Part shown: positions 57,951 to 58,238 of the stretch, piece after piece | Position numbering within the stretch: position 1 is the first letter of the stretch | Layout: every line of letters starts with the position of its first letter | From: Myxococcota bacterium | GTDB taxonomy: Bacteria; Myxococcota_A; UBA796; CAJQPC01 | DNA: 64,000 nucleotides | NCBI GenBank assembly: GCA_036229005.1 | Contig: JAZAMN010000030.1 | Location: 16,416-80,415 of the forward strand | Direction: 5' to 3' | Translations under genes and position numbers: made by a program | The notes under the pieces: model-generated | The model's database searches: none | What the model was told of the DNA's origin: nothing | What the model saw: the letters and a program-made list of their open reading frames with translations, nothing else

Positions 57951-58238
57951 TTACGATGGCTTGGGGCCCGATCGTCCCCTCCACGAGGACCTCGGTGCTC
58001 TTCTCTGCGTATCCCAATGAGCGGCCGCGCAGGTGCTGTTGCCGCACGCTTGCCCCAGCGTCGAGTCTTCGTCCGGCCTGAGCAGGCGGTCGACGATGTT
58101 CCCCTGCTCCGCCGCCTCATCCCCGTTCCTCCGTACCAACGCAATCCCGAGCGCCGCAGTCTGCTTGACCTTGTCGTCCCAGAAGAGCTTGGCCGCGCCC
58201 TTGATCCCAACAGTCGACCTTGTCCACCAGGAACTCCA
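57951..58238 (-). pseudogene. Orphan pre-toxin fragment homologous to the Rhs C-terminal region; no start codon
   Basis: It reads STVGIKGAAKLFWDDKVKQTAALGIALVRRNGDEAAEQ... versus Rhs AVGLKGAAKLFWDDAIKKAASLGGMLLRRNKDEAAEG. A 23-nt identical block lies at 58174-58196 and 62387-62409. Confidence 0.65.

Follow-up and report, generated by a model that had tools for sequence, protein, structure and literature searches.

The locus raises the question of whether a short coding stretch that directly follows the stop codon of an immunity gene copy is the remnant of a toxin tip, and whether it could still replace the active tip of the large toxin gene with which it shares sequence. The first idea was put forward in an earlier note on this window, the whole 64,000-nucleotide stretch of Myxococcota DNA that was analysed; the note added that orphan tips can replace an active tip by homologous recombination and that this one appears to be decaying. 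We put the probability at roughly 85% that the fragment, now a pseudogene, is left over from an alternative C-terminal cassette (handle, toxin 2, and imm2) of the TcB-TcC gene that ends at 61882.

The orphan fragment and the main toxin gene

All genes of the locus lie on the minus strand, including the orphan fragment, which has the orientation of the main toxin gene. The presumed toxin 1 immunity gene, immA (61504..61869, minus strand, 121 aa), is the next gene after toxin 1 in the window and in the related loci L001 and L003, and a second copy, immB (58239..58604, minus strand, 121 aa), is 91% identical to it at the amino acid level. An exact-sequence look-up of immB and of the CPBP-type gene gave no matches. 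Beyond the immB stop codon (58241-58239), the same frame reads on as WSSWWTRSTVGIKGAAKLFWDDKVKQTAALGIALVRRNGDEAAEQ... until a stop at 57953-57951, as the earlier note had described. The orphan starts where another gene is cut off after 11 codons, and the handle frame has no start codon before the handle.

A blastn search of 57900-58260 against the entire 64-kb window matched orphan positions 58101-58213 to main gene positions 62316-62426 (74.1% over 116 nt, E 7e-14), the remaining matches being unrelated with E >= 0.02, and blastp against the in-window Rhs tail gave 21 of 31 identical amino acids (E 6e-12). The resemblance to Rhs residues ~521-556, which the note had made conditional on the similarity proving significant once computed, is thereby borne out. 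The orphan handle (58104..58211, minus strand) comprises 36 codons, VGIKGAAKLFWDDKVKQTAALGIALVRRNGDEAAEQ, and its counterpart in the main gene (62317-62424, minus strand) is the last 36 codons of a conserved pre-toxin domain, VGLKGAAKLFWDDAIKKAASLGGMLLRRNKDEAAEG. A repeat search of the window recovered the pair 58156-58213 and 62369-62426 (83% over 58 nt), inside which lies the reported identical 23-mer, TCGTCCCAGAAGAGCTTGGCCGC, at 58174-58196 and 62387-62409. On the 3′ side of the handle, neither blastn, blastp nor self-comparison of the window found similarity between the orphan and the main gene, again in agreement with the note.

Of the 36 codons in the two handles, 13 are identical, 11 differ synonymously, and 12 differ non-synonymously. 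Because synonymous differences occur at 11 of the 24 codons that encode the same residue, the two handle copies in the window are old, anciently diverged homologues with no recent conversion. Recent gene conversion or DNA-level selection was rejected as the origin of the 23-nt block, since neighbouring synonymous sites are saturated and AAKLFWD is encoded in a GC3-biased genome; conserved AAKLFWD residues together with GC-biased codons account for the block. The handles should therefore be a poor substrate for recombination at present.

The 3′ end of the main toxin gene occupies 61882..64000 (minus strand) and extends past the window edge at 64000. The in-window tail (64000-61882) matched TIGR03696, Rhs_assc_core, with E 3.6e-24 at tail residues 131-212, and its DPxGL motif, PMRFVDPDGL, lies at 63364-63393, so that the tail has the core ending in PxxxxDPxGL that characterises Rhs/YD-repeat polymorphic toxins. 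An exact match to immA identified a metagenome scaffold (L010, from ENA ERZ23498654) that overlaps window positions 64000-59858 at 98.3% identity and carries the entire main gene in its positions 1-9988. The encoded protein of 2458 aa has SpvB (1.9e-52), TcdB_midN (2.1e-19), TcdB_midC (5e-15), and RHS_repeat (5.8e-09) domains, and a TcA gene (TcA_TcB_BD, 2.9e-94) precedes it. These domains and the TcA gene, which lie beyond the window, identify the main gene as the fused TcB-TcC component of a Tc (ABC) toxin locus; the earlier designation as an Rhs gene holds at the level of the family and is refined by this assignment.

The region of the main gene after DPxGL is 493 aa long (51.6 kDa), acidic (pI 4.3), and consists, in order after DPDGL, of a small domain, a G/E/Q-rich linker, the pre-toxin domain with its hydrophobic stretch, and toxin 1. 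The pre-toxin domain (62317..62676, minus strand; EETWLD...GDRYGLPGGWLGWIP...hydrophobic stretch) recurs in L001, L003, and P0001 with 62-82% conservation and, in part, in L005. No Pfam family matched the 126-aa pre-toxin domain at E<=10 in a search in which the HMMER speed filters may conceal very weak matches, and the domain was therefore not classed as PT-TG (PF14449), despite a TG dipeptide in ELATGVG. Toxin 1, the active tip of the main gene (61885..62316, minus strand), weakly resembles restriction-endonuclease-fold toxins, with a match to Tox-REase-2 (PF15646; E 0.0013, 19.4 bits) below the cut-off of 27.6. The toxin 1 domain is also present in a YukE/WXG-type protein, P0003, that has nothing else in common with the tail. 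In a contig binned as a 'Sulfuritalea' MAG (L005, CAZYTN010000004.1, 847-17580), a 2644-aa protein contains the pre-toxin domain (GDRYGVPGGWLGWIP...) and diverges from IGLRGAV on, so the domain is more widespread than the handle family; a 2854-aa open-reading frame comes next.

Toxin 2, its decay, and its immunity gene

A word-indexed protein search returned no relatives of the reconstructed orphan, and an exhaustive HMMER search brought up an intact orphan tip, the 144-aa P0004 (E 2e-11), which lies on the metagenome contig L006 of 1.5 kb. Its sequence runs MLLRRNKDEAAEG|GNIVFRLLRADEDPTQGLF...THVLHGSRPWFRGDKWISTARDP...RIDL...SVRQQLLSGRSIGYAKESTEVLVEGVIGPNSIV..FEALGL*. Among the other HMMER matches, P0005 and P0007 were dismissed as repetitive proteins and P0006 as merely the main gene of L001. 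With two further relatives, P0008 on L007 after a classical ...DVDPRGL motif and one on L008 after a Hint-like ...LVHN, the intact version of the tip that the earlier note had suggested seeking was found, and toxin 2 stands behind three different pre-toxin modules: the handle (L006), the DPxGL motif (L007), and the Hint-like module (L008).

The window copy aligns to P0004 as two remnants. The N-terminal remnant (58051..58103, minus strand), GNIVDRLLRPDEDSTLGQ, continues in the handle frame and matches P0004 residues 14-31, and the C-terminal remnant (57920..58050, minus strand), SVRQQHLRGRSLGYAEKSTEVLVEGTIGPQAIV...AFEALGPR*, lies in a second frame and, after an indel near 57947, in a third. 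At the DNA level, window 58133-58065 aligns with L006 15-83 at 78% and window 58050-57928 with L006 312-435 at 69%, with 14 nt between the two segments in the window versus 228 nt in L006. Relative to L006 and P0004, ~214 nt (71 codons plus 1 nt) are thus missing, with a scar at ~58050-58052, and the deleted part includes the conserved THVLHG..WIST..RIDL core. This single internal deletion explains the frameshift after the handle, and a further 1-nt indel near 57947 puts the last 9 codons in the third frame, the original stop being at 57922-57920. Of the ~50 codons that the note had seen after the handle, 18 therefore truly belong to the toxin and the remainder read its C-terminal part out of frame, and the frameshift it suspected is real, as homology to P0004 moves from the handle frame to the second and then the third. 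In addition, D replaces the conserved aromatic residue (Y/F) of NIV(Y/F)R.

An exact match to imm2 led to a second scaffold of the same metagenome (L009), which corresponds to window 59860-47610 at 99.0%. It shares the 5′ junction, the deletion, and the 3′ indel of the window and has an extra 1-nt insertion in the handle, whose frame becomes ...RRNGK*, for a total of three frameshifts versus two in the window. Between window and scaffold, 10 of 295 nt differ in the orphan and 1 of 309 nt in imm2 (Fisher p 0.005), and the imm2 protein is identical. Because immB is divergent as well (15 of 366 nt), variation or recombination throughout the array, in addition to relaxed constraint, may contribute to the excess of differences in the orphan. 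The deletion, the indel, and the extra frameshift in L009 agree with the proposal of the earlier note that the tip is decaying, and this decay appears to be ongoing.

The gene that follows, imm2 (57610..57918, minus strand, 102 aa), is intact and starts 1 nt past the original stop of the orphan. Homologues of 103-107 aa with the motif ALHALSFH directly follow toxin 2 in L006, L007, and L008 (3/3 loci), and on this conserved synteny imm2 presumably encodes the immunity protein cognate to toxin 2. No Pfam match was found for imm1 or imm2. The window copy of toxin 2 is thus best described as a putative pseudogenised orphan tip with a retained immunity gene.

Predictions of the activity of toxin 2 are weak. 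No Pfam match above threshold was found for P0004, toxin 2 scoring 26.0 and 21.6 bits against DUF7587 (cut-off 27), and an AlphaFold model of P0004 made from an alignment of just 2 sequences had a pLDDT of 36, too low to be usable. The best match of the toxin 2 profile in the PDB was 9zdm_B, weak and sub-significant at E 0.011, which is RhsF-CT of Chromobacterium violaceum, an ART-like Rhs toxin (bioRxiv 10.64898/2025.12.06.692724). This match covers ...ISTT...DLSK...QEVLI, and the R / S-T-x / E spacing in P0004 (R19, S63, E122) resembles that of R1403, S1445, and E1497 in RhsF-CT and is compatible with an ADP-ribosyltransferase pattern, for which profile support is weak. Unlike RhsF-CT, the window copy of toxin 2 has lost the S-containing core.

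Related loci, junctions, and competing readings

A search with the main-gene tail returned two proteins, P0001 and P0002, that share the pre-toxin domain to ...LLRRNKDEAAEGAEA and then continue into two different, unrelated toxins. The handle end, ...RRNKDEAAEG, precedes four unrelated toxins in all, namely toxin 1 (window and L001), tip A (the main gene of L003, and P0001, the orphan of L001), the P0002 toxin, and toxin 2 (P0004 and the window orphan). P0001 and P0002 had no Pfam match. When the orphan tip was compared with the P0001 and P0002 toxins, the handle and a short RLL-PDE stretch were all that matched (E 0.009 in a tiny search space), and kinship beyond these was dismissed as noise. 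On its own contig (L002, 29-1073), P0002 is itself an orphan that retains the final ~45 residues of the pre-toxin domain, starts right after an Imm30-like gene, and has a fourth toxin, likewise without annotation (…ITPHHIPSAKH…).

Two of these loci are arranged reciprocally. The JGI metagenome contig L001, with its GTDB copy L004, carries a piece of a toxin 1 gene, imm1, and then the orphan P0001, which consists of ~100 residues of the pre-toxin domain plus tip A and is followed by a DUF4303-like gene; beyond that gene stands a second pre-toxin fragment cut exactly at LGVK. The locus L003, from an uncultured proteobacterium MAG, has a 2110-aa open-reading frame with tip A, then a DUF4303-like gene, a broken orphan toxin 1 that begins within the handle (GMLLRRNKDEAAEG...), and a broken imm1. 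Main gene and orphan thus carry tip A and toxin 1, respectively, in L003 and toxin 1 and tip A in L001. The main gene of the window bears toxin 1, as in L001, and no tip A toxin survives in the window; its similarity to the L003 main gene ends at 62309, the handle end. The orphans keep 42 nt (L003), 113 nt (window), and ~330 nt (L001) of upstream homology, and such a variable length of retained upstream homology has already been described for cdiA and rhs orphans (PMC3150448). A genome profile scan with the trimmed alignment showed that the handle is conserved across independent loci. These arrangements argue that, as part of the displacement reading favoured here, the exchangeable unit in this lineage would begin at the handle, RRN(K/G)DEAAE(G/Q), ~350 residues past DPxGL, and they bear out the description of the shared stretch in the earlier note as a recombination handle.

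Two further observations concern L001. The pre-toxin fragment at its array end (7913-8394, cut at the handle start, ..LGVK|) abuts a tRNA-Asn gene (8318-8394, minus strand). The contig (L004, JBLHMA010000123.1) has 64% GC and a gene 76% identical to the window toxin gene, and it is placed by GTDB in a Cognaticolwellia sp. MAG. The genus Cognaticolwellia has a GC content far below 64%, and the contig is for this reason probably mis-binned.

The predicted immunity genes at the window locus comprise SUKH-1, SUKH-4, Imm30-like, DUF4303-like, imm1, and imm2 genes, and the array has 61% GC versus 69-70% in the flanks and the gene core; no tRNA gene marking an island boundary was found in the window. 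Past imm2 lies the 85-nt 3′ fragment of a third imm1-type gene (57487..57571, minus strand; 87-88% identical to 58238-58322 and 61503-61587), where L006 has a full imm1 homologue after imm2. At the distal end stands a DUF4303-like gene (56978..57463, minus strand, 161 aa, with a weak DUF4303 match), presumed to be an orphan immunity gene, whose homologues lie at 7645-8060 and 8845-9152 in the L003 array. Elsewhere in the array, a 118-nt fragment (60875-60992) that is 80% identical to the 3′ part of imm2 (57645-57760) represents another eroded imm2-type gene and sits just upstream of an SMI1/KNR4 gene (60315-60833). A 27-nt stretch, AGTCGACCTTGTCCACCAGGAACTCCA, encoding (M/L)EFLVDKVD, occurs at 58212-58238, 59543-59569, and 61477-61503; the copy inside a SUKH-like gene (59289-59729) has 100% identity to that in the remnant after immB, and the copy with which the DUF4303-like gene next to immA starts has 96%. 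The N-terminus of this latter gene is unlike its L001 and L003 homologues, and the gene may therefore have a recombinant 5′ end.

Self-comparison of the window showed that a 448-nt block, 58205-58652, repeats 61470-61917 at 93% identity and contains imm1 flanked by the final 36 nt of toxin 1 and the initial 34 nt of the DUF4303-like gene. Short-microhomology junctions are present at both of its edges. At the left edge, the toxin 1 gene end (58617..58652, minus strand, ..RVRVPGRVEVR*) runs into the initial 73 nt of an imm2-type gene (58649-58721), and this fragment, 96% identical over 58721-58649 to 57918-57846, meets the block at a 2-4-nt overlap. At the right edge, the first 11 codons, MEFLVDKVDCW, of the DUF4303-like gene that is 3′ of immA in the main copy (58205..58239, minus strand) meet the orphan handle at the microhomology CTGTTGGG (in the main gene, CTGTCGGG), as seen in a three-way alignment of 58255-58175, 61520-61440, and 62468-62388.

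From these junctions we infer an order and a mechanism of insertion. New tip and immunity cassettes would enter by recombination anchored in conserved upstream sequence with an illegitimate join downstream, and every entry would shift the previous tip, clipped at its 5′ end, to a more distal position together with its immunity gene. In the first event, a segment of toxin 1, imm1, and the DUF4303-like start would have been spliced, through 8 nt of microhomology, to the resident handle at its start, producing the orphan. In a later event, a segment ending 73 nt into an imm2-type gene would have been attached to the resident toxin 1 at a point 36 nt short of its end. Toxin 2 would have decayed afterwards and imm2 persisted, presumably for the protection that it still offers against toxin 2 deployed by neighbours.

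The orphan may instead never have been the tip of this gene, a reading that we consider possible and distinctly less probable, in which it hitch-hiked in an imported immunity block (handle, toxin 2, imm2, imm1...) that was trimmed by internal deletions. The distal array of the window (handle, toxin 2, imm2, imm1 fragment, and DUF4303-like gene) is syntenic with L006, where the order is handle, toxin 2, imm2, imm1, a 3′ fragment of tip A, and a DUF4303-like start. The orphan handle is 74-77% identical at the nucleotide level to the main-gene handles of the window, L001, L002, and L003, and so about equidistant from all four, and synonymous sites are saturated between handles, so that the orphan could have come in with an imported cassette. 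However, displacement also predicts that resident and incoming handles differ, so this distance does not discriminate between the two readings, and the junction of immB, DUF4303-like start, and handle is exactly as expected after insertion by one-sided homology into a resident handle. The 5′ junction and scars of the import event would also result from an internal deletion mediated by microhomology. No allele was found in which this handle links toxin 2 to a BC gene shown to be full-length; the P0004 contig begins inside the handle.

Displacement remains our preferred reading. A further reading is that the orphan is a live reservoir, such that recombination between the handles could load it on the main gene and change the toxin of the strain. 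The copies are direct repeats on the same strand with an identical block of 23 nt, and this model has been proposed for intact orphans (PMC3150448, Discussion). The window copy, however, lacks ~71 codons including the core and carries two frameshifts (three in L009), and its handle is just 74% identical to that of the main gene. An exchange would be inefficient today, and it would delete immA, immB, and six more genes (eight in all) to yield a dead toxin. Given these lesions, a live reservoir is very improbable.

Even less credence can be given to the mosaic (duplicated immunity gene, fragment junctions, and deletion) being an assembly artefact of a repeat-rich region. Repeats of 448, 85, and 73 nt are present, and the ERZ23498654 assembly breaks within the array near window position 59860, but an independent assembly of a 99%-identical strain (L009) repeats the junctions, the deletion, and the 3′ indel across 58727-57487. 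Both L009 and L010, from a 98-99%-identical strain, end in the array near 59860 (59800-59980), probably at repeats or strain variation. That the similarity is due to chance or composition, or that the fragment belongs to an unrelated intact gene on either strand, as the note had asked to be considered, can be set aside almost entirely, for although several long open-reading frames overlap the region in this GC-rich DNA, they have no family match, the E values are 7e-14 (nt) and 6e-12 (aa), the handle is conserved in independent loci, and the adjoining remnant follows P0004 in the frames that one would expect.

Relation to known systems

The architecture is of the known orphan-module and sequential-displacement kind, not a new type of element, and differs in exchange point, carrier, and inactivation. 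As in the orphan rhs-CT/rhsI and cdiA-CT/cdiI modules of Poole et al. 2011 (PMC3150448), a toxin fragment with neither promoter nor start codon, and with no delivery region of its own, lies 3′ of a full-length toxin gene in the same orientation, which is the arrangement that the earlier note had recognised as that of an orphan tip. Also as in those modules, a conserved stretch of variable length is shared with the main gene up to a junction, beyond which the sequence is unrelated to the main tip; the tip is akin to tips of other toxins elsewhere; and a small immunity gene of its own comes next, here imm2, whose homologues follow toxin 2 in L006, L007, and L008 and whose immunity role is predicted. 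Unlike in those modules, the junction is ~350 residues past DPxGL (or VENN), at the end of a second pre-toxin domain (...RRNKDEAAEG), and the carrier is a TcB-TcC fusion and not a T6SS-type Rhs protein. The orphans tested in that study were functional, whereas the toxin part in the window is inactivated by loss of ~214 nt and a 1-nt indel, with one more frameshift in L009.

The distal retained immunity genes, the eroded effector remnants, the position of the newest cassette beside the delivery gene, and the GC content of the array below that of the core are all features of sequential effector/immunity displacement (Kirchberger et al. 2017, PMC5361080). In contrast to that system, the junctions here are readable at the nucleotide level (2-8 nt microhomologies), and the array is common to the uncultured relatives L001, L003, and L006 in shuffled order. 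Passages of both PMC5361080 and PMC3150448 cite C-terminal displacement of rhs.

With the TcdB/TcaC-type toxins (Zhang et al. 2012, PMC3482391) and the TcC hypervariable regions (HVRs; Song et al. 2021, PMC7861908), the main gene shares the SpvB, TcdB_midN, TcdB_midC, and RHS domains beside a TcA gene and an Rhs core that ends in DPxGL before a hypervariable C-terminal region. In the lists of Zhang et al., nuclease tips and immunity families already appear for TcdB/TcaC-type toxins. Song et al. reported no predicted immunity proteins in the Tc loci examined there, and 99.8% of their HVRs were under 40 kDa, compared with an HVR of 493 aa and 51.6 kDa followed by a predicted immunity array in the window.

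The locus offers a nucleotide-resolved case of what would be toxin tip replacement followed by erosion with persistence of the immunity genes, a textbook relic of tip swapping for which an intact counterpart, the scar of the deletion, and a population variant with decay of its own are available. It defines a previously unannotated, predicted toxin 2/imm2 pair behind three different pre-toxin modules, and an unannotated pre-toxin domain whose end appears to act as an exchange point. It also places a predicted immunity array in the style of polymorphic toxins behind a Tc (ABC) toxin gene, a setting in which the survey of Song et al. reported none. We suggest, tentatively, that the pre-toxin domain (~120 aa, hydrophobic, ending in RRN(K/G)DEAAEG) may be an undescribed cassette-exchange junction analogous to VENN and DPxGL in the unusually long, ~50 kDa HVR of TcB-TcC fusions, in which case the Tc complexes that carry it, accompanied by immunity arrays and orphan tips, might take part in inter-bacterial conflict and not only in attack on eukaryotic hosts.
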